From Mobula hypostoma (taxonomy: Eukaryota): a stretch of DNA of 64,000 nucleotides. A program made the position numbers and the translations under genes. The stretch spans positions 44,766,001 to 44,830,000 of the forward strand of contig NC_086097.1 of NCBI RefSeq assembly GCF_963921235.1. Reading direction: 5' to 3'. Under the pieces are notes generated by a model. It worked only from the letters and a program-made list of their open reading frames with translations. It was not told the origin of the DNA and did no database searches. This document shows, one piece after another, positions 18,731-59,959 of this stretch (position 1 is its first letter; every line of letters begins with the position of its first letter).

Positions 18731-19109
18731 AGCTCTTATCTAAAAACACAATCTAAAAGTAATGTAAACTTTTAAATAATCTAATAAAAAATACAAAGGC
18801 TAACATAAAACAGATGTGCAATTTTCTGTAAAACCTAGAAAATAAGATTCACAAGTTGTATTAAAAATCATTGAGTTTCTGTTGTTGTTTTGGAAAATTA
18901 TTAAGACTTTTCATGTGAAGCAGATCCAAGGCAGCAAGCAGCAGAGCACGTCGAATCCACTATTCAATGAAGGATTTGAAAGCAACTGTGACATTCAGTG
19001 CATAGCTTCTCTCCTAGTCTATCTTCCACATTATCCTCCATAGAACCAGCCATCTCTCATCTTCCCAGATCCCTTTGAGGACTTCTCACGTTCTGAAGTG
19101 CAAAATTCA

Positions 19110-24414: not shown

Positions 24415-25256
24415 TAATCTAAATTAACTTCTGCTGCACTACAGCAAGTACATGCTTCCTTCCCTGCATATCTGCATTTTAATTTACAGTGATTCATACA
24501 CAAAAACATCCAGGTACACTGAATATCAACACCTTTAGATCTCCCACCACCTAATAAATAATCTGTCTCTCTGTGTTAAAATAATTTTCAGACGCAACAT
24601 CACATGAGATGGTTAACTTCGATCAGCAAATTAGCAAGGAGGTTGATAAATTTATGCAGGATTTATGGAAACGACAACAGGAATGACTTTGACTTTAAGG
24701 TTTTCTACAGTGTCAATATTTCATAAATACTCAATTGGTACTGTTAATGGTCCTTGAAATATTACTCAAGATGGTGTCCAACGCTTCTTAACCAGAGCAA
24801 GTAAGTGAGCAGATAAACTGAATAAGAGTTATGTGCTCCCATATGAAAGCTACACTTACTGAGCAGAGATGGCATGCCTGATTTATAACCTGAGTAAAGG
24901 ACTGTATGAAGTTATGGTTGGATTATTTAAATTTTGGTTCCTTGTACTTCCAAACCTCCTACAGCTATTTGCAGTACAGTCCGGAGTTTTGCTAATGATT
25001 CTTTGTATAATTTGGTGAATACAAACTTTTTTGAATATATATGAACCAGGGCACCATTTTCAGGAAGGATGCACACATGAAATAGCACATTACGTACATT
25101 TGCATTGACAAGGAAGCGCAAGTTGAAGCAAGCTGTTAAGTAATGCAATAGGGGCTATACATTGTTTGTGGATATTCAGTTTGCAGTTGGCAAGGAGATG
25201 CGCATCCACGAATGGGCAAGCTGAGAAAGGTGTGAAATCGTTGCTTTCATTTGTAC

Positions 25257-25322
25257 CTAGAGGATGGAAGATGAGACTGCAAAATAGTCTTAGCTTCAGA
25301 ACTCTTCATCATTAATGCACTT
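25257..25322 (-). CDS. EVL: EVL-I-type alternative cassette exon (SALMMKSSEAKTILQSHLPSSR)
   Basis: tttag|A AGT...TCT AG|gtacaa; 66 nt, phase 2-2; same position as and similar to the mammalian EVL-I insert [21 protein letters not shown]. Confidence 0.85.
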
Positions 25323-25793
25323 CTAAAACAATGAAATGGAATTAGAGAAAGACTGAATGCAATATTCTTCTGACATCATTATTTCAGAAATATATGCCTA
25401 GAAACTGTACACATTTTACCTGTCCTTTCATGCATAAGTCATGCAAAAAAACTCAATTTTCATGTTTTGAAGTGTGTGTACTCATTTCCAACATAATGCC
25501 CCACCCATGGAAAATCCGACTAGGCATTCCCAGGCATCAATCATCCTCTATTTTCTGCACATGACATCATCAATGTGTGCAGCTTGCATTCCATAAGTAT
25601 TTCTGTTATTTAATAACAGAAATTAGACTGAAAGTCAAGACATACTTAACTTTGGACTAAACACCGCTGAAAGCCATGAACTGAACACAATGTAAAGGGG
25701 CCCACTTAAAAAAAAAGCCCTCCATTGTAAGCAACACACATCAAAATTGCTGGTGAACGCAGCAGGCCAGTCAGCATCTCTAGGAAGAGGTAC

Positions 25794-30562: not shown

Positions 30563-33400
30563 ATAAGACCATTAGATATAGGATCAGAATGAGGCCATTT
30601 TGCCCATCGAGTCTGCTCCACTATTTCAACATGGCTAATCCAATTCTCCTCTCAGCCCCAATCTTCTGCTTTCTCCATGTATCCCTTCATGCCCTGACCA
30701 ATCAAGAATCTATCAACCTCTGCCCTAAATATATATAAAGACTTGGCTTCCACAGCTGCCTGTGGCAAAGACTTCTGCAGATTCACCACTCTCCGGCTAA
30801 AGAAATTCATCCTCACCTCCATTATAAAAGTATACTCCTCTATTCTGAAGCTGTATCCTCTGGTCTTAGACTCTCCCATCATAGGAAACATCCTCTCCAC
30901 ACTCTATCAAGGCCTTTCACCACTTGATAGGTTTCAATGAGGTCACCCCTCATTCTTCTGAATTCCAGTGAATACAGGTCCAGAGCCATCAAATCTCTTC
31001 CTATGATAAGCTGTTCAAACCTGGAATAATTTTTGTGAACCTCATTTGAAGGCTCTTCAGTTTCAGCATATCCTTTCTAAGATAAGGAGACCAAAAATGA
31101 TCATAATACTCCAAGTGAGGCCTCACCAGTGCTTTATAGTCTCAACATTACATCCTTGCTTTTATATTCTAGTCCTCTTGAAATGAATGCCAACATTGCA
31201 GTTGCCTTCCTCACCACAGACTCAACCTGCAAGTTAACCTTTCGGGAATCCTGCACAGGCACTCCCAAGTTCCTTTGTGCCTCAGTTTTTTGTACTTTCT
31301 CTCCATTTAGAAAATATTCAACTCTTTCATTTCTTCTACCAAAATGCATGACCATACACTTCCTGACACAGTATTCCAACTGCCACTTCTTTGCCTATTC
31401 TCCTAATCTGTCCAAGTCCTTCTGTAGCCTCTTCACATCCTTAAAACTACCTGTTCCTCCACCTATCTTCATATCATCAGCATATCATTTGCAACAAACC
31501 ATCAATTGCATCATCCAAGTCATTGACATACAACATAAAAAGAATCGGTCTCAACACAGACCCGTGTGGAACACCACTGGTCACTGTCAGCCTACTAGAA
31601 AAGGCTCCTCTTATTCCCACTCTTTGCCTCCTGCCAGTCAGTCACTGCTTTATTCATGCTAGAATCTTTCCCGTAATAACACAGGCTTGTAGCTTGTTAA
31701 GCAGCCTCATGTGTGGCACCTGGTCAAAGTCCTTCTGAAAATCCAAGTACACAACATCACCCGATTCTCCTTTGTCTATCCTTGTTATTTCTTCAAAGAA
31801 TTCCAACAGATTTGACAGGCAAGATTTTCTCTTGAGAAAACCATGCTGATTATGGCCTATTTTATCATGTGCCTCCATAAACCCTGAGACCTCATTCTTA
31901 GTAATCGACTCCAACATCTGCCCAACCACTGAGGTTAGACCAACTGGCTTGTAGTTTCCCTTCTTCTGCCTCTCTACTTTCTTGAAGAGTGGAGTGAAAT
32001 TTGCAATTTTCCAGTCTTCTGAAATCATTCCAGAATGTAGTGATTCTTGAAGGATCATTATGAATGCCTCATAATCTCTTCAACCACCTCCTTCAGGACC
32101 CTGGGGAGTACACCATCTGGTCCAGATGATTTACCTACCTTCAAACCTTTCAATTTCCCAAGAACATTCTCCCTAATAATGGATGTAAAATACTTATTCA
32201 GTTTGTCCACCATTTCCTTGTCTTCCATTAATACCTCTCCAGTATAATTTTCCAGTGATCTGATATCCACTCTCATCTCTCTTTTACACTTTATGTATCT
32301 GAAGAAACTTTTGGTATCCTCCTTAATATTCTTGGTTAGCTTACTTTTGTATTCCATCTTTACATTCTTAATGACTTTTTTAGTTGCTCTCTGTTGGTAT
32401 TTAAAAGCTTCCCAATCCTCTAACTTCCCACTAATTTTCGCTCTATTATATGCCCCCTTCTTTGGCTTTTATGTTGGCATTGGCTTCTCTTGTTAGCCAT
32501 GGGTGTGTCATCTTGCCTTTAGAATACTTCTTCCTCTTTGGGAGGTATATATCCTGTGCCTTCCGAATTGCTTCCAGAAATTCCAGCCATTGCTGCTCTG
32601 CCATTATAACTGCCAGTGTTCTTTTCCAATTAATTGTAGCCATCTCCTCTCTCACGTCTCTGTAATTCCCTTTACTCCAAGAGGTCACAACATCAGGATT
32701 GAAGGACATCCGTTTAGAACTGAGATGCGGAGAAATTACTTTAGTCAGAGGGTGGTAATTTTGTGGAATTTGTTGCCATGAGCGGCTGTGGAGGCCAAGT
32801 CATTGGGTGTATTTAAGGCAGAGATGGATAGGTTCTTGATTAGCCAGGGCATCAAAGGGTATGGGTGAAAGCAGGGGAATGGGGATGACTGGAAGAATTG
32901 GATCAGCCCATGATTGAATGGCAGAACAGATTTGCTGGGCCAAATGGCCTACTTCTACTCCTATACCTTATGGTCTAATGGTTATACTGATACATCTGAC
33001 TTTATCTTCTCCTTTTCAAATTTCAGGATGAATTTGATCATATTATGATCACTTTTCCCTAAGGATTCTCTTATCTTAAGCTCTCTAATCAATTCTGGTT
33101 CTTTGCACAACACCCAATCCTCTAGTGGGCTCAATCACGAGCTACTCTAAAAAGCCATCTCGTAGGCATTCCAGAAATTCCCCCTCGTAGAAACCAGTAC
33201 CAACCTGATTTTTCCAAACTACCTGCATACTGAAATCCCCATGACTATTGTAACATTGCTCTTTTGGCATGCGTTTTTTATCTCCCATTGTAATCTGCAG
33301 ACCACATCCTTACTACTGTTTGGGGGTCTGTATATAACTCCCATCAGTGTATTTTTTTACCCTTGCAGCTCCTTAGCTCTATCCACAATGATTCAACACC
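30563..33400 (-). mobile_element. Degenerate CR1 LINE ORF2 with nested antisense CR1 tail (~32678-32985, +)
   Basis: ORFs 30652-32709 with KSSGPDG, QHGF, VVYLDFQK motifs. Confidence 0.92.
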
Positions 33401-47460: not shown

Positions 47461-48501
47461 TCCTGATTCATGGAATTATGCAAGACAGAAGCAGGGCCTT
47501 CAGCCCCGCATACCCATGCCAATGAAGTTGCCTGCCTAAGCTAATCCTATTTGCCTACATTGGTCCATATCCCTCTAAATCAGGGGTTTCTAATCTGACT
47601 CAAAGAGTTATTAATTAACAAAAGAAAATGACTTATCACATTTACAAGCTTATAATTAATTCAGGTGAGCATGCAGCCTGTATTTTATATGCATTTCAAG
47701 CAAATGTCAAAATGTTGTTAGTAAGATAAAGCAAGAACAAGTTTGAGTTCTTAAGTTACAGATTTTTGTGAATTAAGTTTGACATTTAAGTTACAGGTAA
47801 TGTAATGAAAATAAAAATTGCTGAATATTCTATCAACAAAACAATGTCTTAAGCAGAAGGCTATTATTAACCCATTTCAGGATTCACTCCATGAAGTTCC
47901 TTCTAGGTTGTTCCTTGATTTTCATGAGAAATGCCAAGCATTTCCCTCTGTAAGTGTCGGGAAGTTCAGATCTCCCACACTAATGTGTAAATTCTAAACA
48001 GCTTGACAAGTTGGGTTCTTGGTAACTGGGCTCCTCTGCTTGACTCCACAAGGCCATGTGCAAGTCCCAAACCTACAGCGATGTTCCAGTTACTCCCCTT
48101 TAGTGAACAGTAAATTTGTGTCATTAGACCTCCACACTGGGACAGTAATTTCATTTACTTCAGTGGAGATGAGCAACTGCAAACTTCCCAATTAAATGTC
48201 AGGTAATTTATATTTTTTAATTAATCGAGTTTATAGAAATATTTTATTGCACTTTTATATTTCATGATTTTTCCATTTTAATATATATTCAAATAATTTC
48301 TGAACATTATGAATATGAGTGATTTAGAAACATTCATACTTTTAACAGATAGTGGCCTCTGTCAAGTTTAAATTTTCAGCATTTCTGTGAACAGAGATTA
48401 ATCTGAATACACCCTTACAGCCAGGAAATTCTAAACTTAAAAGAAGGGTCAAAATTATATTGTGTTACAGATGCAACTCAAGATATTGATATCACCTTCT
48501 T

Positions 48502-48502
<1 letters not shown>

Positions 48503-48556
<54 letters not shown>

Positions 48557-48600
48557 TATATATACATACATACACATACATACACACACACACACACACA
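48503..48600. repeat. (TA)n(CA)n compound microsatellite
   Basis: Directly visible. Confidence 0.95.
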
Positions 48601-49198
48601 TTTAAAAATTATTTTTGCACATTGTCTGCAAACACCTGAGTTTATTGTAATTGTCAAAATGTTTGAAAGTTTTGTTAATCACTCCTGCGGTGAAATAACT
48701 TTAATTTTTAGTGTTGAATCATGGTTGTTGAATTCTTACTTTAAAGCAAATGAACTAAAGGTATCTAAAAGGTGAAAAAATCAGTTAGCTTTAGACCATT
48801 TCTATTCATTTACCAAAGAGACTACCATAAGTGCCATGGTCTGTGTTACGTGATAATAGCAATCCTTCCACCAATATTTTTTTCACAGCAAGGTCTTTCA
48901 CTGCACAGTTTTATACTGTAGTTCTTGATCTTGAAATATTAGCACTTAGGAAGTTCATAATCACATGTTGACAATAAATATATCACAGTAATTTTCAAAA
49001 TCAACATTACTTGAATATATTAAGCTAATTAAAAAACATTAAATGTTAAGTTGTTAAGTAAGAATTTCATTTTGCCACGTACGGACTTAGAAGGAGAATG
49101 ATCATGGTGTACCACCCATTCACCAACTGAACCAACAAACAACTTTCCAAGTATTTTACATGGTGCAAAAATGTTAATAAGAAAAGCAAGGCTCCTAC

Positions 49199-49437
49199 CC
49201 GGCTAGTTTTCCTCAGTTTAGCCCCAGCGATTGCTGCTGCTAGTCCTGAAGCTGAGTGTCCCTCATCACCTCTAGCTCCAGGGCTTCCACAAGCTGGCAA
49301 CGGAGGAGGAGGAGGTGGTCCACCTCCAGAAGCTGGTGGAGGCCCTGGTGGTGGTGGAGGTGGTGGGGGACCACCAGCAGGAAGAGGTGGGGGGCATGTA
49401 GGTTGTGCATGGGGTCCTCCAGGAGGAACTGGGGGAG
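49199..49437 (-). CDS. EVL: EVL proline-rich region and G-actin-binding motif exon
   Basis: ttcag|CT CCC...AGC CGG|gtagg; 239 nt, phase 1-0; GPPPPPPP runs and [14 protein letters not shown]. Confidence 0.95.
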
Positions 49438-50217
49438 CTGAAATAAAAGTTAAAAAAATATAACAGGGTTAGTCTACTTCAACAGCATCATGTCTATGCA
49501 AAATGGTCAAAATGTTATCAAACACCATCAAGTAAATGCTTAATTAGGTTGAACTCCATAACATGTTAATGCTTCATTGCTGGTTATACATTTGTAGTTA
49601 AGTTTACTTCTGTGGTTAGTTATTAAGTGCAAGTTAAAATTACTGGTTAAAATTATGTGTCATATGTTTAACTCCATTAATATATCATTCTTGGATATTT
49701 TTTGAGAAAGGTGGTGAATATATGCACCTTCCCCTCTAATAAGGGCTATTTTAAAGGACTAATATAATAGATGAAAATATAATTTGCTTGCTTTATAGTT
49801 ACACCATAAAGCATTCAATTCTTTTCTTCTCTATCTATATTCAAATAAAGTATTAAGTGGAAAAGAATAACATCTTCAGGAAGAAACAAATCAGATGAGT
49901 GTTGCTAATTGCTTAACAATCCTGCTTTGTAGCATTTGTGTTGGAATATTATAATAACCTGTAATTAGGATACAGATTTCCAATATTTTTAGAAAAACAG
50001 AAAACAGGCACTATAATTACTAAAAGATTTCCTAAAATTAAAATAGTGTAAAACTGCAAACAAATCTCATTAAAGTAGTCCTTTAAAATTTTGTACGTCA
50101 AAAATCATTTAAGTAAAAAATATTCAAGCCAAGCAGAGAAGAAACAGAAAATAAAATGAGATGTCTTGAGTAAACAACACAAACATATTGTATGATGCCA
50201 GCAATAGCACCACTTAC

Positions 50218-51093
50218 CCAACTGGGTAATAGAAGTTGAAGTGACTGATGTCATAGAAGATGAGGTCTTCATGGACATTGCTGCCTCACAGAAGGCAGCG
50301 CGAAATGGAGGAGATGTAATGAAGTGTGAACGGGACTTGTAAAGCTGTTGTGCAGAAAGTGATGAGAAAACTAGTAGCTGAGGATGAATGTAAGAGGAAG
50401 GTGGACCACTTAAAATTGGCATGTGAGATTCAGGACCAGATTTTAATGTGCAAGAGCCCTCTGCATTCTTTACTCTTGTTGGAGGCCTGGAAAAGGCAGG
50501 GTGAGTTGATGCTAGAATATTATTTTCATCATGACTCCTCTGGTTTGTTTCAGACGAAGCTAACTGCACTGCAGAACCCACTGGCCTTTTAATCTTCTCA
50601 TCATGCAGATGAATTAATGAAAGACTATCTGGAATTGTAGGCTGAGATCCAACAGCCTTGTGGGGAGGAGTGGCGATTGTCACAGGGGGCAATGAAGGAA
50701 GTGGAGTAGATGTATGATGAACAGGTTTAGGCTGTAAAGTTGAAGATGGGAAAAGAGTAGAGGTCAGGGATAATGGGATCTGTCTAATACTTCGACTCAT
50801 GGTCCCATGGCTTGGTTGTGTAGGAGATAAAGCAGGAGTTAGGGAAGTAGATAATTGTACTGAAGAAGATCTAAGAAGTGAGGGTTTAGTAGAAGTTCCA
50901 CTGGATGGCAAGTGGCAAGGATCATCAGCAAACACTCGTTTAGCAGAAGCTGCAGAATCAAAGGAGGTGGCTCTGGTATAAGAAGGTGGAGAGGGAGCTT
51001 TAGTAGACATGGTTACACTGTAGGTGTTATATTGATGTGGAGGAGACTGGCTATGGAAAGGGGAGTGGGCAACTTTGATCTGAAGGGTAGAAA
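50218..51093 (-). CDS. EVL: Large in-frame Ser/Pro/Thr-rich cassette exon of EVL (292 codons), Mena '+' insert-like
   Basis: Long polypyrimidine tract + cttag|TT TCT ACC; ends CAG TTG G|gtaagt; 876 nt, phase 1-1, stop-free (inside ORF 50105..51172), phase-compatible with both neighbouring exons; no TE motif recognised. Confidence 0.8.
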
Positions 51094-51204
51094 CTAAGCA
51101 ATAGAAGCAAAAAAAGAGAAGAAACAATAAGTAAAATATATTAAAAAAGTCAAAACAGAGAAGAATAAACAAAGTTTAAAATATTCCATTGTTAATGCAA
51201 ATAC

Positions 51205-51709
51205 CTAATACGCCAGTGAAATAGCAGTAATTCAATGCATGCAGACATGGTCAAGACGTTCAGTTGTTGTTCAGACCAAACATTAGCATAGGGAAGAAAT
51301 ATGATCTAAGTGACTTTGACCGTGGAATGTTAGTTGGTGCCAGATGGGGTGGTTTGAGTATCTCAGAAACTGCTGACCACCTGGAATTTTCACACGCAAT
51401 AGTCTCTAGAATTTACAGAGAATGGTGCGGAAAAAGAAAAAAATCATCCAGTGAGTGGCAGTTCTGTGGGAGAAAAAGGCTTGTTGATGAGAGGTCAGAC
51501 GAGAATGGCCAGTCTGGTTCAAACTGACAGGAAGGCAACAGTAAATCAAATAACCATGCATTACAACAGTGGTGTGCAGAAGAACATCTCGGAACGCACA
51601 ACACATTGGAACTTGAAGTGGATGGACTACAGCAACAGAGACCACAAACTTATACTTAGCAGCCACTTTATGAGGTACAGGAAGTACTTAATAAAGAGGC
51701 CATTGAGTG
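51205..51709 (+). mobile_element. Internally deleted Tc1-like transposon
   Basis: GKKYDLSDFDRGMLVGARWGGLSISETA (Tc1 HTH); right end ataaagaggccattgagtg|TA. Confidence 0.8.
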
Positions 51710-52229
51710 TATATGTTACCACATACTACCCTGAAATTCATTTACTTGCAGATATTTATGGGAAAAAATACAGTAGAATTTTTACCAAAAAACATACACA
51801 ATTAAAGACAAACAACCAATGTGCAAAAGACAAACTGCATATAAAAATAATACTAAAACATGAGTTATAAAGAATCTTTGAAAGTCTCTGAATGTATATC
51901 ATAGATGAAAAATCATGCTGACAGAGTGGGATGGTAATAATGATTTTCAACTATATTTTCATTTTTGCATACTGTAGGTTATTTACTTCCTGTGGAAAAT
52001 CATACTTTTAATTGTGACATGTTCATGGTTAATATGCAGAGAATTAAGGAATAAAAGTATTCAAAGTGAATTGTATTCCATGCTGTTGTTATGAATGTGC
52101 TAGTCATGTAGAAGTTAAGAAACTGGCTTATATAACATTGAATTCTCGTAAGGGGGAGTATTTGAACTTAAGAAAGAAATAACAATTTTGCTGCATTTTT
52201 AGGTTTAAAAAAAAGGGAAACCATTCCTC

Positions 52230-53594
52230 TGCCTTGATCTACGGGATGCAAGACTCATTTTGTTTGGTGTATAAAGCTCATTTTGTGCAATGACGGAAAC
52301 AGCCGAGCCAGTGACTGATTCCATTTTAATTAATAAGCCATTGATTTCTGGTATAAGACACATTGCTTATCCCTTGTTAGTTTTCATATTGTAAATCTCA
52401 AGGTTACCTTGTCCTGTGTCTCTCTCATCACTATCAGATTTTTCATCAACAGCATGCAAATTAATACCCTTTTTCAAAGTGCAACTTGACTTCTTATCTT
52501 TTCCTCTTCCCTATGTAGTCCATTTACTTTTGTCGGCCTGACATGCTCTTTGTATGTGTCCTACTTTGTTGAATTTTCTGCATGTTTCACCTTTAAACCT
52601 GCATTGGTCTGGGTTACGTGAGCCCCTGCCAAAAGGTAACACAATTCATTCAGCTTCTGTTTAGACATTGCAATTTTGTTCATGCTCATTTTCATTCCTG
52701 ACTGGAACTCAATTGTGTCTCTGTCTGCTGTTTTCATTGATACAGCAATTTCAACTGCTATTTTAAATGCAAGTTGTTCTTCAGTTAGGTGCTGTTTTCG
52801 AATGCTTTCTTGTAATATTCCACAAACTAAATGATCTCTCGTTGCATCATTAAGCCCATCATTGAACTGACAAGACTCAGACAACTTCTTCAGTTCAGCT
52901 ACGTACCCCTTCCTTTCGATTCCACTTATAAAACCTAATGTGTTCTGCAATCAACAATGGCTTTTGTTCTAAATGTTCCTGAATTACTTTCACAGTATTA
53001 GCAAAGCTCATTTTGGCTGGCTTGGTTGGAGCAGTTAGACATCTAAACAAAGTGTAAACCTTTAAATCCAATGCACTCAATACAATTAGCACTTGCACTG
53101 GCTACTTCATTTCCTTCAAAATACTGTTCAATTTGCTCAGTATACAATATTTAGTTATCCCTTGAGCAACCGAATATGTCTATCTTTTCAATGTAGCCAT
53201 CCACTTCTGGCCTGGTACTCACTGCTTATGAACCCATGAATCTAGTCTGTTTTCTGCCTTTTTTTTTAACTCGACAGTTTTTTAAAAACTCAAATGTCTT
53301 GCTGTGCTTTTTTAAAAAGCTCAAACATCACGCTGTGCTTTAACAGGCAGGTAGTCATCTCAGGTCATTTAAAACTTACACGTAGCAACTGTTATGTTTT
53401 GTAACCCAGGAGAATGTATTTTAGTTTAGTTTTTACTTTAGTGAGGCACACACTTATGACATGGTGGTGTAATGATGTTTGCCAGTCATGTACTTTTAAA
53501 TACAACCCATAATGAATTATGGAGACAACAAAGAATGCTCCGTCAAACAATATACTTACAATATTACTCAAATATCAGTGAAATATTAAATACA
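52230..53594 (-). mobile_element. Gypsy LTR retrotransposon 5' fragment (LTR ~53390-53594, gag, start of protease)
   Basis: YTLFRCLTAPTKP, YVAELKKLSESCQFNDGLNDATRDHLVCGI. Confidence 0.82.
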
Positions 53595-55011
53595 AATCAT
53601 TTGGTATTATTAAAGTGGAGGTTGATAGGTTCTTGATTAGTAAGGCGTCAAAGGTTACTGAGAGGAGGCAGAAGAATGGGGTTGAGAGGGAAAATAAATC
53701 AGCAATGATTGACCCAATGGGCCAAATAGCCTAATTCTCCTGCTGTATCTTATGGGCTTATTCTACTCAAGTGAGTCTCCAAGAAAATGCCCGTTAGTCG
53801 TGATGAATACAGATCTTTTCCTTCTACCAGATTGAATGTTCAGTGACTTATTCACAATTACAACAGGCAGCAATTTTTTCCCCTAAGATCCTAGGTTATA
53901 AGCTCTAGCACAGGATGGTGTGAATTACATGCATGCAGTTTCAAGGCCACAATTCTTTCTGATAGTAAAACGGAAAGAAATTTCACTCTCTTAATATCAA
54001 ATGATATGAGGTCAAAACAACAAATTATGTAAACAGGTGACAGTATGAATTAGAACCAGGGTTATTATTATTGACATATAGTATGTCATGAAATTGTTGC
54101 TTTGTGGTAGCAGTACCGTGTAAAGCATGCAAAAATTATTATAAATTATAATAAAAATAAATAAATAGCGTAAAAGAGGAATAGTGAGGCAGTGTTCATG
54201 TCCGTTCAGAAATCTGATGGCAGAGGGGAAGAGGCTGTTCCAAAAACGACGAGTGTGGGTCTATACCAGCTCTAATTAAGATATCTTCATCCTTCACTAG
54301 TCTACTGTGTAAAATTCAATGGGTTAGCAGAGTAAAGTAAGGGTGATTATTTGGGACTGAGTATCTTATGACATGGGTAATGACTCCAACATGTAACAAA
54401 TATGTAGATACAGAGCATATGTGTATTGAAAGCTAAGCCGCTCTGTGAGCGTCATCTAGCTGACCACTGATCTACTGAAACGATGCATATACAGCCTGGA
54501 TTACTCTTCCCTGTCACGAGTTATAACAGTGTCCCCATTACCACAATGCCAAAACGAAAGCCAATGCAGAATAAACATTTGAAACCAAACTTGTATATTA
54601 CATCACACCATATTTACAACAGCCAGCTGTCACACTGTTGCATCTTTTACAGCTAGCCTTACTGAAATCCTCATGAGACCTTTGCAGCAAAAGTTCCTTG
54701 TTATCTATCCTTGCTGCCTGCCTTCTACTTTTGCCCATCACTGTATGTAGTGGCTACTTCTATGGCACCAACATCTGAGCTAATGGCTCCATTTGTGAAA
54801 TGCAGTGACTGTATGCCTCGAAATGAGAAAGAAGACTGCTTGTACAAGGATGTAATTTTGTTAGCTGATCCATGATTACACCATCTAAATGGAGTTTGCG
54901 TTGATGCAGAGATAGGATTAGTTAAGAGAACATTAACGTTTTAAGTGTTTTCACTCCTGTTAGTGTTTGTGATTTCAGCAATAGGAGTCTTGTGGAGAGC
55001 CAGCAGTGACT

Positions 55012-55856
55012 TCACAAGATCACAAGACAAAGGAGCAGAAGTAGGCCATTCGGCCCATCGAGTCTGCTCCACCACTCCACCATGAGCTAAACTATTCTGC
55101 CACCTAGTTCCAATTTCTGGCTTTGTCCCCATATCCCTTGATACCCTGGCTAATTAGATACTAATCAATCTCCTCCTTAAACACCCTCAATGATCGGGCC
55201 TCCACAGCTGTATGTGGCAATGAATTCCACAAATCCACAACCCTCTGGCTAAAAAAATTTCTCCTCATCTCTGATTTAAATGGGTACCCTCTAATTTTAA
55301 GATTGTGGCCCCTTGTCCTGCATTCACCCACCAAGGGAAACAGCCTTTCCACATCTACTCTGTCCAACCCTTTCAACATTCAAAATGTTTCTATGAGATT
55401 CCCTCTCATTCTTCTATACTCTAATGAACACAGTCCAAGAGCCGACAAATGCTCCTCATATGTTAGCCCCTGCATTCCAGGAATCATCCTCGTAAATCTT
55501 CTCTGAACTCTCTCCAACATCAGAACATTCCTTCAGGGGGGCCCAAAACTGCACACAGTATTCCAAATGAGGTCTCACCAGTGTCCCATAAAGCCTCATC
55601 AACACCTCCTTACTCTTATACACTATTCCTCTTGAAATGAATGCCAACATAGCATTTGCTTTCCTTACTGCCGATCCAACCTGGTGGTTAACCTTTAGGG
55701 TATCCTGCACAAGGACCCCCAAGTCCCTTTGCACTTCCGATTTTTGAATTTTCTCCCCATCTAAATAATAATCTGCCCGATTAGTTCTTCTTCCAAAATG
55801 TACAACCATACATTTCTCAACATTGCATCTCATCTGCCATTTCTTTGCCCACTCTT
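55012..55856 (-). mobile_element. 5'-truncated, relatively young CR1 LINE
   Basis: ORFs 55161-55833 with RPHLEYCVQFWAP and tail (CACAAGAT)n. Confidence 0.92.
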
Positions 55857-56187
55857 GTGCATGGAATTCAGAACATTTAGGTGCCCACAGTTTATTCGTG
55901 CTGCCTCTGAATGTGCAAGATCAAAACCTACAAGAGAGAGTGAAGTTTGTTATTGAATGTTGTGTAAGGTGTTTGGCCTTTATGTTTATCATGGCAATGT
56001 ACGTAAGCTACGCATTATGGATGTGAGGTTTACAGCAGTGTTTGTTAGTGTGTGACGGAGAAAATGAATGAGTATAGATTGGTGGGCGTTGACCATAAGT
56101 TATAGAGCAATACAGCATAGATACAGATATATGCCAATAATGTAAATCATGATTCTGAGAGAACAGTATAGTTAGTACTGACTAGAC

Positions 56188-56798
56188 CAGGTGTGGTGAA
56201 ACTGGCACACATGCCCAAGGTGGCACACACAAAAACTTGGTTGGCATGAGGCATGCAGGGCTGCCTCTTGATTTTTTAAACCCTACCCATAAAATAAAGG
56301 TACATAATGATTATCCTAACTGCCAAATGAAGCAGAGAATGATTTTACAACCTGAGAGCAGTGAAAAATTTTCACAAGGAGCATCGTAAACTGGCTGTGA
56401 GAACACATGACATTGTATGATATATTTTGAAATCCTCACACACCTGGTGTACCTACCAGTATTTGGATAGTAAATGGTTACATTAGCAGTACTTTTTAGA
56501 AATGATAATAGTTTTCAAATGTCTTTTCAAAAGATTAATGTTAATAATTTTGAATAGATTTTCTAAAATGCTTCATTTATTTCAATTTGTCTGTTATACT
56601 TATATTAATAGTTAAACAGTCAATACACATAAATAAGTGATAGAACTCATTTCTTTCCTTAAAGTCTATAATTATTGTTACTAATTCATTAATCAATAGC
56701 AATCTCTGCTCAAAATTACCATGGCACTTAACAGTATGTTTTTCAGAATATTGTTGCTATTTTGAGTACATACTCTCAAAGAAGGTTCGCCACCCCTG
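56188..56798. mobile_element. hAT (Charlie-type) MITE
   Basis: TIRs CAGG(T/G)GTGG(T/C)GAA; 8-bp TSD GACTAG(A/G)C at 56180-56187 and 56799-56806. Confidence 0.82.
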
Positions 56799-57732
56799 GA
56801 CTAGGCCATTGAATTTATTATTTTCAGCATGTAATGTAAAAGTGGCGTGATAGTTTAATTTCAATCACAAGACAACAATTATTCATACATAGTAGCCCCC
56901 GTCTCCATAATCAGGGATATCAAATTTAGGCCACTAACTCCTCTGCCATGAGATAATGTGAACTATTGTAATGCCCATGGAAACACTGGCTCTACTATTA
57001 GCCTATCGTTGTGTACGAACACTGATAGCATTCATAGATCAAAATCCAGTGCAATACTGAAAGTATGTTGACCCACTAATATGTACCAACACTGTCAGCT
57101 CTACAGCTCAGTTGGTACGCAGAAACAAACAGAAGTAACATTTCTGTTTGTATCCAGCCCCAATGCTTACTCTTGGGCCCTCTTGTCATTTATATGTTCC
57201 TCTGCATTTCCATTCTCTTGTGAGCAACAACAAAAAAAGTTTCAACTTCTGAATGGCCTCTAGTGTTCCCTTAAGAACTGCTCAATGCCAGGTTTAACTA
57301 GACCAAGTGTGTATGTCACAAACCCTGTATATTTGCACATGGGCTTCAATCAGCATCCTATATTTGCTTAGAATTTGTAAATAGCCTCATGCCCATTTTT
57401 GGTGCTGGGCTGCCTAACCCTTTTAAATTCCTTGAGCATATAAGGGCTGATAAGATTCCCTCTCCCACTACCACACACTCTTCCTGATTAAATCCAAAAT
57501 GCTGGTCATCTGTTTCCTCCTGAAATGCAACTTTGTATTAAGTATCTCCCCAGGTACCTCTGCTCATTCCTATCTCTGTGCCCATATATAATTCTGATGC
57601 AAAACTTCATAATTATTTTCCCCTAGGTCTTTACCATTTTATTACTGTCCCTGAAATGATCCATAAGGAAATTGACTAAAGAAATAAAATTCAAGACAGC
57701 ACCATGCCCGAATAAGTTCAAGAGCTCCTCAC

Positions 57733-57791
57733 CAGACATGGAAGCCCGTCGATCTCTTTCCATTTGCTCATGTCGTTGTTCCATTATTTGC
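57733..57791 (-). CDS. EVL: EVL coding exon (QIMEQRHEQMERDRRASMS)
   Basis: tttag|G CAA...TCT G|gtgag; 59 nt, phase 2-1; keeps the RRxS PKA-type motif of EVL (RRTS). Confidence 0.9.
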
Positions 57792-59465
57792 CTAAAGAAG
57801 TTATTCAAAATAATTATCTACAGAATCCATTTAAGATGGAGGTGCAAAAGAAATTCAATTTTATTAACAAACAAAGTTTACCAGTTGCATAGCTTAAACT
57901 TAAATAAATGTAACAATGTAAAGCTAAATACACATCATTATAATATTGCTTAAATTCACTGCTTTGGGAATCACCAAAAAGAACAAAAATGACTTTGGGG
58001 AGATTATAATCTGGCTCACCATGTTAATCTTTATATAGGTGCGGTCTTAGCAAAGCCCCTAATGTTGTTTCTGAAACTGACATATCACAGGCTAGAATGC
58101 TAAAGCTTTTTATTTTAGGAAGTTGCATTATATAGTGGTATTTTCCGGATGTCATGCAATTGAAAATAATTTTTCCTTAAGAGTGAAATGTGATAATGGC
58201 AATTTCTGGCCTATTTTACATCAGACAAAAACGTGATACCTGGTTTGCACATTGTTTGTGTCATTCTCTATATAATGCATTGTGGGAGAACTGGACCACG
58301 CTATCCAAACAGTAACCATTCCAGGGCAGTACTAGGTCAAGTTGGTCCTCCTATCATAGTGTTCAACTGGGAAATCCATCAGATGTCTTTCTATCACCCT
58401 TTAGGCTATTGTCTTCATATGTTATATTCCCCACTCCTCACAATAGATCACATTTCACCCCCCCCCCCCACCCACCCACCCACCACACCAGCTCCAATCT
58501 CATGTCTTCCTAAGACCCTCAATCTACCGGATGTATTGATCTCACAACACCATCATGCTCTCAAAATCTACCCCTATTCTTCTCCAACCTATCTCATACT
58601 TGGTCTAATTGTCACCCTTCATCTTAAACTGCATGCTTTTGATGGTCCTGAAAATGTGACTTCCCCCCCTCCCCTTTCATTAGATCCAGCTGAAGCTTGC
58701 AGCTGGTGGGCAACTGTCATTGTTATTGATACTCCTTTATGGTGTACTAGAATTCCTAGGCTGAAATATCTTAAGGCAATGTATCATAATACATGATACA
58801 TGTTTCCAAAATTTAGCATTTTCATAAAATATTGATTATATTCTCAGATGGCCAGTTTCCAAGTCCAGTTGCCATGTTAAGCAGTTTTAGGCCCAAGCAA
58901 CCTGCATAGTCACTGGAAAAATATTCAGCACAACAGTGGAGAATTGAGAACAAAAGCAGAGTGAAAAATACCATAATTCTTCAGTTAGCCTTCAAATGTA
59001 ATAGAGTTAGTCCTAGTCAGCGGATGAATCAGTATATAGCATTATGTTTCATCATCTAAGTTTCAAGCGTATACTCATTGCAGGATGAAGAGCTGTCATA
59101 GTCATATTAAATTATACAGCTGTACTGTATGTTGAAAACAAAATAAAAATGTGCCCAGAATGTGATAAATTGAAAAAGTATTTTGTTTTCTGAAACAATA
59201 TATTTTAAGAACCTGTATCGGTCAGTTTGCAATACTTAAGTTACATAGTTTGTAAAATTTTTATTTATAAATGCTCATGTATCATTTTCTGTTGCACTGT
59301 TCTCCATCTGCAGCAGTTTTAAATTTCCCTGCTGTTAACAGCAATGATGTATTTCTTGTTTAAGTTAGTTATTTTACAAATATTTCTTATACATCACTCT
59401 TTCGTACAAAATATAAAAATCTCATTTTCAATAATCATACGGAAAATGTTTCAACTGCACCTTAC

Positions 59466-59535
59466 CTTCGCTGTGCTTCCTGATCTTCAGGGGGTGGCCC
59501 ATTCTGGACCTGAATTTGACGTTGCACCGCAGGAC
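59466..59535 (-). CDS. EVL: EVL coding exon immediately after the EVH1 domain (most 5' exon in window)
   Basis: tttag|GT CCT...CGA AG|gtaag; 70 nt, phase 1-2; (G)PAVQRQIQVQNGPPPEDQEAQR(R) resembles EVL GPSSQRQVQNGPSPDEMDIQRR. Confidence 0.9.
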
Positions 59536-59959
59536 CTAAAGGATCAAGTCAAAATGTTCATCTTTATTTTCATTTCTACAGTTGACAATAATTCAAAGGA
59601 GTATTCTAACATCAAAATGAAATGTAAAACCAGTCTTCAAATCTTTCAGTGGTGTTGTTTTCAAAATAGCATAGCTTCGATGGTAAAAGGAGTTCAGAGC
59701 ATGTAGTGCACAAGAGTGTGCAGACATAGAGGTCATGTGGATCTCTATGACATGGCTTTGTTTAAATAAGTGTTCCTGAAAACTGTTCAAATGCATTATC
59801 TAGCTGACGAGTGGGACCGTGAATTTATGGCAGATAAGCTGCACTTGGGAATTCATGAAAATGTTCCCTGTTCAATAGCCAGGAAGAGAAGGGATTCTGG
59901 GCAAGTGGGAACTGAGATGGTGAGAGGCTGGTACTGGGATTCTTCTCCTTTTGGATCAT

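Follow-up and report, generated by a model that had tools for sequence, protein, structure and literature searches.

A long cassette exon in the EVL gene of Mobula hypostoma, probably related to exon 6L of ENAH (Mena)

The EVL locus and its exons

The 64,000-nt stretch of Mobula hypostoma DNA analyzed here (the window; contig NC_086097.1, positions 44,766,001 to 44,830,000) was compared by tblastn with a Hemitrygon akajei protein annotated as 'ena/VASP-like protein isoform X3' (P0001). EVL exons were matched on the minus strand from position 59536 down to 19034, and over the 11 non-insert exon matches the identity to P0001 was 86–100%. The exons recovered include those encoding the polyproline and G-actin-binding region, the F-actin-binding region (~45728–45573) and the coiled coil. 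The minus strand at ~19148–19113 encodes the canonical EVL C-terminus (..AIRQELSRISTT, followed by the stop). Outside the insert, the window scored 150 bits against newt EVL versus 35 bits against lemur ENAH. The exon preceding the insert is 59 nt long and is not the LERER repeat exon, whereas the ENAH matches carry long LERER runs. The EVH1 exons (P0001 residues 1–118) gave no real match within the 64-kb window by tblastn, and presumably lie beyond its end. On these alignments, the gene hosting the insert is EVL of a ray-like elasmobranch.

Two details of the 3' portion of the gene are recorded separately. A short exon at 25250–25324 (minus strand; ..RSALMMKSSEAKTILQSHLPSSR..) matches P0001 residues 637–661; some shark isoforms, P0005 and P0006 among them, lack it. 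Its location corresponds to that of the optional EVL-I exon 10a, between the actin-binding sites and the coiled coil. The Hemitrygon X3 model terminates instead with another tail of 20 residues, whose coding sequence follows immediately after that of the canonical C-terminus, at 19093–19034 (minus strand; 90% identical here). This points either to an alternative final coding segment or to an artefact of the model.

The insert lies in a stop-free minus-strand frame of 356 codons (50105–51175), the sole frame of at least 100 codons within 49900–51400 and the longest stop-free run of the 64-kb window; in 30 mononucleotide shuffles the longest run reached at most 186 codons, with a mean of 142. 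The exon acceptor reads ...ttgtttcttctctttttttgcttctattgcttag/TTTCTACC (slashes mark exon borders), with position 51093 as the first exon base, and follows a long, pyrimidine-rich tract ending in ..ttgcttag/. The donor reads ...CCAGTTGG/gtaagt, with 50218 as the final exon base. These borders define an exon of 876 nt, or 292 codons when the split codons are counted, and by frame arithmetic the exon is of phase 1-1, contributing one split-codon base at each end. The upstream exon ends in ..GCTTCCATGTCTG/gtgagg (ATGTCTG/gtgagg) at 57733, likewise in phase 1, and the downstream exon begins with ag/CTCCCCCAGTT at 49437. Because phase 1 is found at both cassette ends and at 57733, the reading frame is intact with or without the cassette. 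The anatomy at 51093–50218 is thus that described in the original prediction, which had proposed an 876-nt stop-free segment with a strong acceptor and a G/GTAAGT donor. Its placement between the RRAS exon (57791–57733) and the polyproline exon (49437–49199) was borne out as well, and the phases at 57733, 51093, 50218 and 49437 agree with the claim that a phase 1-1 segment could be skipped without a frameshift. The features are collected in Table 1.

Table 1 Features of the EVL cassette region, in window coordinates
Feature	Position	Strand	Basis
Upstream EVL coding exon, at least part (..GPAVQRQIQVQNGPPPEDQEAQR..)	59466..59536	-	tblastn with P0001, 100% over 24 aa
59-nt exon with RRAS kinase-site motif (QIMEQRHEQMERDRRASMS)	57733..57791	-	sequence, tblastn, joints
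Polypyrimidine tract and AG acceptor of the cassette	51094..51160	-	16-nt uninterrupted pyrimidine run 31 nt upstream; AG at 51095-51094
876-nt cassette exon, Ser/Pro/Thr-rich predicted-disordered segment	50218..51093	-	frame, borders, contigs
Part homologous to ENAH exon 6L (5' part of 6L), insert residues ~16-157	50621..51046	-	profile, hhalign, tblastn
PPSY, the lone PPxY motif kept in Mobula hypostoma	50978..50989	-	sequence
PLPSLPPVTIATPPHKAVGSQPTIP, counterpart of the ENAH PLPPSPP(V/I)MISSPPGKATGPRPVLP block	50630..50704	-	hhalign alignment; ENAH block in P0019-P0023
Cassette donor GTAAGT	50212..50217	-	sequence
Polyproline and G-actin-binding exon	49199..49437	-	97.5% to P0001; accepts from the cassette or directly from 57733

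Inclusion and skipping of the cassette

Splicing of the exon was examined in contigs from four sequencing runs of two studies, three from organism A (X1, X2 and X4) and one from organism B (X3). The runs are not recorded as RNA, and the nature of the molecules was judged from the behavior of the contigs. Four intron bins (56854–57567, 57925–58281 and 58996–59352) had zero depth in all four runs, and contigs jump introns at CT..AC borders, equivalent to GT..AG on the minus strand; the contigs therefore behave as RNA. The joint between the two upstream exons (57790/57791 to 59465/59466) was found with CT..AC ends in each run. The same is true of the joint 49437–57733, by which the 59-nt RRAS exon, ending in phase 1, donates straight to the polyproline exon instead of to the cassette. 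An exon-less, canonical-type EVL mRNA therefore exists.

Inclusion was read from contigs whose match stops precisely at an exon border, with 30-letter overhangs, the letters of which were not displayed; the inclusion joints themselves (57733–51093 and 50218–49437) are not among the 15 of 105 joints listed. In organism B, a 935-nt contig (X3 record 18, depth 12.6) comprises exactly 50218–51093 plus 30 letters at each end. In organism A, one contig starts exactly at 50218 (X1 record 2), and two end exactly at 51093 with 30 letters beyond (X1 record 5 and X2 record 10). Such exon-exact contigs, found in three runs of two organisms, are the expected output of k-mer assembly for a cassette exon. 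Contig pieces of the downstream exon were recovered as 49199–49437 in three runs and as 49199–49438 in X3. A single contig (X4 record 26, depth 2.2) extends beyond the donor and into intron sequence, a pattern expected of unspliced RNA. Contig depth is unsuited to ranking isoforms or expression. The 876-nt exon is a real EVL cassette, which is both included and skipped, and the proposal that it is optional is upheld by the skip joint 57733–49437 in all four runs together with the exact-border contigs in three.

Near the exon, GCATG was found at three places only, 149 and 466 nt upstream and once within it, which is approximately the background rate of the window. No YCAY clusters or GU-rich runs were found there, and other neural splicing motifs were not in excess.

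The neighboring intron contains abundantly covered segments. In the stretches 51142–51855, 53284–54354 and 54712–55782, the summed contig depths reach thousands in all four runs, and joints and changes of strand are numerous, a pattern that expressed dispersed repeats would produce. The intron open reading frames at 51231–51870 (plus strand), 55456–55920 (minus strand) and 52561–52950 matched no Pfam family. Another EVL intron sequence, at 31654–32079 (minus strand), contains part of a reverse transcriptase (Pfam RVT_1, E 6.1e-10), and by eye similar-looking reverse-transcriptase-like frames are present at 42.6–43.3 kb and 55.2–55.9 kb. A compound TA/CA-type microsatellite at ~48490–48640 appears as open frames of YIYIYI/THTHTH.

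Relationship to ENAH and distribution among vertebrates

According to PMC2898656, mouse Enah exon 6L is 843 bp long, comprises the '+' segment together with exon 6 and is generated by splicing to an upstream acceptor; it occurs abundantly in brain and was also detected in heart. That paper reports the discovery of two EVL splice variants, EVL and EVL-I, and states that Mena exon 6 is absent from Evl.

We built a profile from eight elasmobranch inserts (A1) and searched it with HMMER against 1.84 billion representative proteins at E <=0.001. The 21 matches obtained comprise 14 proteins of EVL type and 7 of ENAH type. Two of the latter, from Lemur catta (P0022) and Panthera tigris (P0023), are named 'protein enabled homolog', and the other five (P0019, P0020, P0021, P0024 and P0026) were assigned to the ENAH type by their LERER repeats and the shared motifs. 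The E-values of the ENAH-type matches for the whole library range from 8.4e-11 to 2.1e-5, and the matched region is always confined to profile positions ~16–161. Profile–profile comparison by hhalign of 82 unique EVL inserts with eight ENAH regions gave a probability of 98.8%, an E-value of 1.2e-16 and a score of 118.3, with 44% identity over 139 aligned columns (EVL columns 16–160). Controls of identical composition, one reversed and ten column-shuffled, scored 9.7–14.2. The lemur ENAH sequence used alone in tblastn matched the window exon at 50896–50630 with an E-value of 7.6e-4. The blocks shared by EVL and ENAH occur in the same order: (P/L)PxY; PPPSYAK; ..RHSAS..(S/T)SLxSAF(S/H)PV..; and (F/S)SPLPPSPPVM(I)(S/T)SPP.(K/R)A.GP.P..P. 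For the last ~45% of the exon (residues ~161–291), neither the profile search nor the profile–profile comparison revealed an ENAH counterpart.

The matched region of P0022 (residues 281–419) begins a few residues past the end of the LERER/RRVSS segment, and is therefore placed at the 5' end of exon 6L. We take the '+' part of ENAH to be long enough to hold the whole of this region. These alignments significantly relate the first ~55% of the EVL exon to the 5' portion of ENAH exon 6L. The resemblance to the Mena '+' insert claimed in the original prediction accordingly stands for the first ~55% of the exon, where comparison by HMM gave bias-corrected E-values down to 8.4e-11 and an hhalign score far above the controls; no ENAH match was detected for the last ~45%. 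Both Mena motifs that the prediction had quoted are present verbatim in the lemur 'protein enabled homolog isoform X4' (P0022). The equivalence of position was also borne out, as the EVL cassette occupies the slot of ENAH exon 6L, from the kinase-site exon to the polyproline exon.

The exon is widespread. When the exon peptide served as query in a word-based search, 8 of 5939 candidates matched, all of them elasmobranch proteins named 'ena/VASP-like protein isoform X..' in NCBI/UniRef, which are 52–90% identical and cover 100% of the exon. Seven of these proteins are 703–724 aa long, and the remaining one (P0006) is a 598-aa isoform. Word-based searches with residues 172–454 of a newt isoform (P0014) and residues 148–440 of a turtle isoform (P0045) returned 89 and 106 matches, respectively. 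Apart from three unnamed rows in the newt-query search and two in the turtle-query search (P0015, P0017, P0118 and P0155), every match of these two queries is named as EVL (or evla) of a non-mammalian vertebrate. Among fishes, the exon was found in sharks, rays, Callorhinchus, bichir, paddlefish, gar, bowfin, coelacanth and lungfish, to which cluster look-ups added the evla of sturgeon, arowana, salmon and killifish. Among tetrapods, it was found in salamanders, frogs, turtles, crocodilians, squamates and birds. No mammalian name occurs among the 8, 89 and 106 matches of the word searches. The eight-insert elasmobranch profile aligned to nearly all of these proteins along close to its entire length. 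In 82 unique full-length matches the insert measures 253–305 residues (median 293), and whole-exon identity to the window falls from 90% in Hemitrygon (P0001) to ~32% in the newt. Most of the long EVL entries are automatic predictions carrying isoform X numbers.

An origin as an exonized transposon or as a lineage-specific exon is ruled out by this conservation from chimaera to birds. One long-insert EVL model of 1111 aa, from Varanus komodoensis (P0010, KAF7251615.1), contains an internal RVT_1 domain, which most likely stems from a retroelement in an intron that was joined to the model.

The absence of mammalian names agrees with the claim that canonical mammalian EVL lacks the segment, as does PMC2898656. 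The description of the exon as cryptic did not survive, since it is already present in predicted EVL isoforms of ~700–720 aa from many species in NCBI and UniProt, including the 90%-identical ray protein P0001. Similarly, of the suggestion that the exon was lost or overlooked in mammals, loss fits the absence of mammalian names; the exon as such was not overlooked, for many gene models annotate it. A literature search, in which subscription journals were outside the coverage, found no publication on a long EVL isoform, including in Xenopus. Nothing pertinent was listed either for the 140-kDa form of Mena or for WW-domain binding through its PPSY motif. The link between the ENAH and EVL exons looks undescribed so far, although the exon itself is already annotated. 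On the sequence comparisons above, the statement in PMC2898656 that exon 6 is absent from Evl appears to hold for mammals only.

Peptide properties, alternatives and evolutionary reading

The insert consists of 20% Ser, 12% Pro and 10% Thr. No Pfam family was detected in the insert and its two neighboring exons, and a search of the ESM Atlas gave no usable match. AlphaFold2, run with an eight-sequence alignment, returned a mean pLDDT of 43.4 and a pTM of 0.11 without secondary structure, and the peptide is accordingly predicted to be disordered. Conservation is concentrated in short islands. These are the STLQIKV start, SPPP(E/D)Y, PPPSY, the SLxSAFSP block, LSPPP, the PLPPSPPV block, a basic (K/R)I(K/R)(R/G) patch and, toward the C-terminus, ..QQLY....F(V)(S/T)(L/S)PPxYAA(V/F)SE..SK(K/R)TP. 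PPxY motifs occupy up to three conserved places among EVL inserts; of the 82 unique inserts, 60 have a PPxY within the first 70 residues and 69 have one within the final 70. In the window insert only PPSY is retained, the other two sites reading PPHQY and SPPFR. Lying in a predicted-disordered region and being of a type conserved among orthologues, PPSY is a putative WW-domain ligand.

The contig of organism B, a close relative, differs from the window exon at 15 positions; 4 of the changes are synonymous and the other 11 are not. Given 222 synonymous and 651 non-synonymous sites, this corresponds to a pN/pS of ~0.94, a value resting on very small numbers. Over this short distance the exon shows no sign of amino-acid constraint and is indistinguishable from neutrality, given the small numbers. 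Such a value is somewhat unexpected for an exon whose frame is intact and which is deeply conserved. Disordered linkers usually evolve fast outside short motifs, and the value fits such a linker, or some relaxation in rays.

The best explanation, in which we have high confidence, is that the exon is a genuine alternatively spliced cassette, corresponding in EVL to exon 6L of ENAH, which gives rise to the long, brain-enriched form of Mena. The alternative that bears most directly on the constraint data is that the exon is real but decaying in rays, with some inclusion, near-neutral evolution, the loss of most docking motifs and a long isoform of little function. Besides the pN/pS value, two of the organism B changes fall at positions that are invariant in the eight elasmobranch inserts (S83 and A247), only one of the three PPxY sites is kept, the ray inserts carry a 3-residue deletion, and rays are 51–58% identical to sharks within the exon, with flanking exons that are far more alike. 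However, the frame is intact over 292 codons both in the window and in Hemitrygon at 90% identity, both splice sites are strong, and the exact-border contigs come from two organisms; moreover, fifteen differences are too few to measure constraint in a disordered linker, where rapid change outside short motifs is normal. We regard decay in rays as unlikely.

A different objection concerns the similarity to the Mena insert, which could reflect convergence of low-complexity, proline- and serine-rich sequence rather than common descent. The composition of the peptide, the alignment of only part of the exon and the weakness of the direct pairwise match to lemur ENAH (E 7.6e-4) would be in keeping with this. 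Against it stand the bias correction applied by HMMER, after which the whole-library E-value still reached 8.4e-11, the 44% identity over 139 ordered columns, the low scores of same-composition controls (9.7–14.2 versus 118.3), and the same position in both genes with a similar length (876 nt versus the 843 nt given in PMC2898656). Convergence is largely refuted, and we consider it highly improbable. Still less credible, and refuted in practice, is the notion that the segment results from faulty gene prediction or is an intronic frame open by chance, outside the mature EVL mRNA. It could draw on the fact that most named matches are automatic predictions, that the runs are not recorded as RNA and that the low-depth X4 contig reads through the donor; yet the 356-codon run is far beyond the shuffle maximum of 186, the frame is conserved from chimaera to birds, and, in runs where other contigs jump introns at GT..AG borders, contigs terminate precisely at both splice sites.

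Inclusion of the exon inserts ~292 Ser/Pro/Thr-rich residues, predicted to be disordered, between the EVH1 domain with its RRAS site and the actin-elongating half composed of the polyproline region and EVH2. The segment might serve as a docking module, through putative PPxY (WW-domain), PxxP (SH3) and Ser/Thr-Pro phosphorylation sites. It might also act as a spacer, lengthening the tether from the EVH1 anchor to the actin end, as is presumed for the homologous part of long Mena. By analogy with Mena, inclusion may be regulated by tissue.

The same exon slot is occupied in ENAH and in the EVL of all sampled non-mammalian jawed-vertebrate groups, and we therefore infer an ancestral exon that predates the ENAH/EVL split. 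The simplest account is that the exon was present in the ENAH/EVL ancestor, was later lost from mammalian EVL, and is absent or was lost in VASP. The earlier proposal that the exon is older than the ENAH/EVL duplication probably holds, given its presence in EVL from chondrichthyans to birds and its homology to ENAH. The origin of the Mena '+' module would then be dated to before this split.

More speculatively, a single optional exon of ~850 nt may already have been alternatively spliced in the ENAH/EVL ancestor, such that non-mammals would retain both EVL+ and Mena+ while mammals lost EVL+, the cluster of PPxY sites marking the long products as WW-recruiting forms. We put this forward tentatively, as an account that may well not hold. 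If true, WW partners of the long isoforms could include NEDD4-type ligases or YAP/KIBRA-type scaffolds. The PPxY sites, the SLxSAFxPV block and the PLPPSPPVM block are candidates for the poorly understood function of long Mena. A ~290-residue optional exon is present in EVL models of every jawed-vertebrate group sampled other than mammals, and the logic of mouse knock-outs regarding the redundancy of Mena and EVL may not carry over to fish, frog and chick.

Among the closest known systems are the predicted long EVL isoforms of Hemitrygon akajei (X3), Pleurodeles waltl (X4, XP_069064423.1), Scleropages formosus (evla X2, XP_029114345.1) and Xenopus tropicalis (F6V1N0), which carry the same exon in the same place. 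There is no difference in kind, and the window provides one more orthologue. EVL-I exon 10a resembles the cassette in being an optional EVL exon with a counterpart in the window (25324–25250), but differs in its small size (25 codons matched here) and its location within EVH2, and neither its sequence nor its position is related to that of the cassette.

ENAH exon 6L and the cassette occupy the same slot, which directly follows the RRxS kinase-site exon and precedes the polyproline region. Both are optional in the mRNA, and their sizes are similar, 843 bp in mouse according to PMC2898656 versus 876 nt here. The first ~140 residues are homologous, with PPPSY, ..SLxSAF(S/H)PV.. and PLPPSPPVM..PP.KA.GP.P..P in common. 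The two exons differ in their host genes, exon 6L belonging to ENAH and the cassette to its paralogue EVL, and neuronal enrichment is a feature of Mena. They also differ in the mode of splicing. As described in PMC2898656, the 3' part of the mouse Enah exon (exon 6) is constitutive and the '+' segment is added via an upstream acceptor; unlike this, the whole 876 nt of the EVL cassette is skipped (57733–49437), without a constitutive 3' part. Whole-exon skipping is nevertheless also seen in ENAH, since the same source describes Enah ESTs of Xenopus and zebrafish from which exon 6 is missing altogether.
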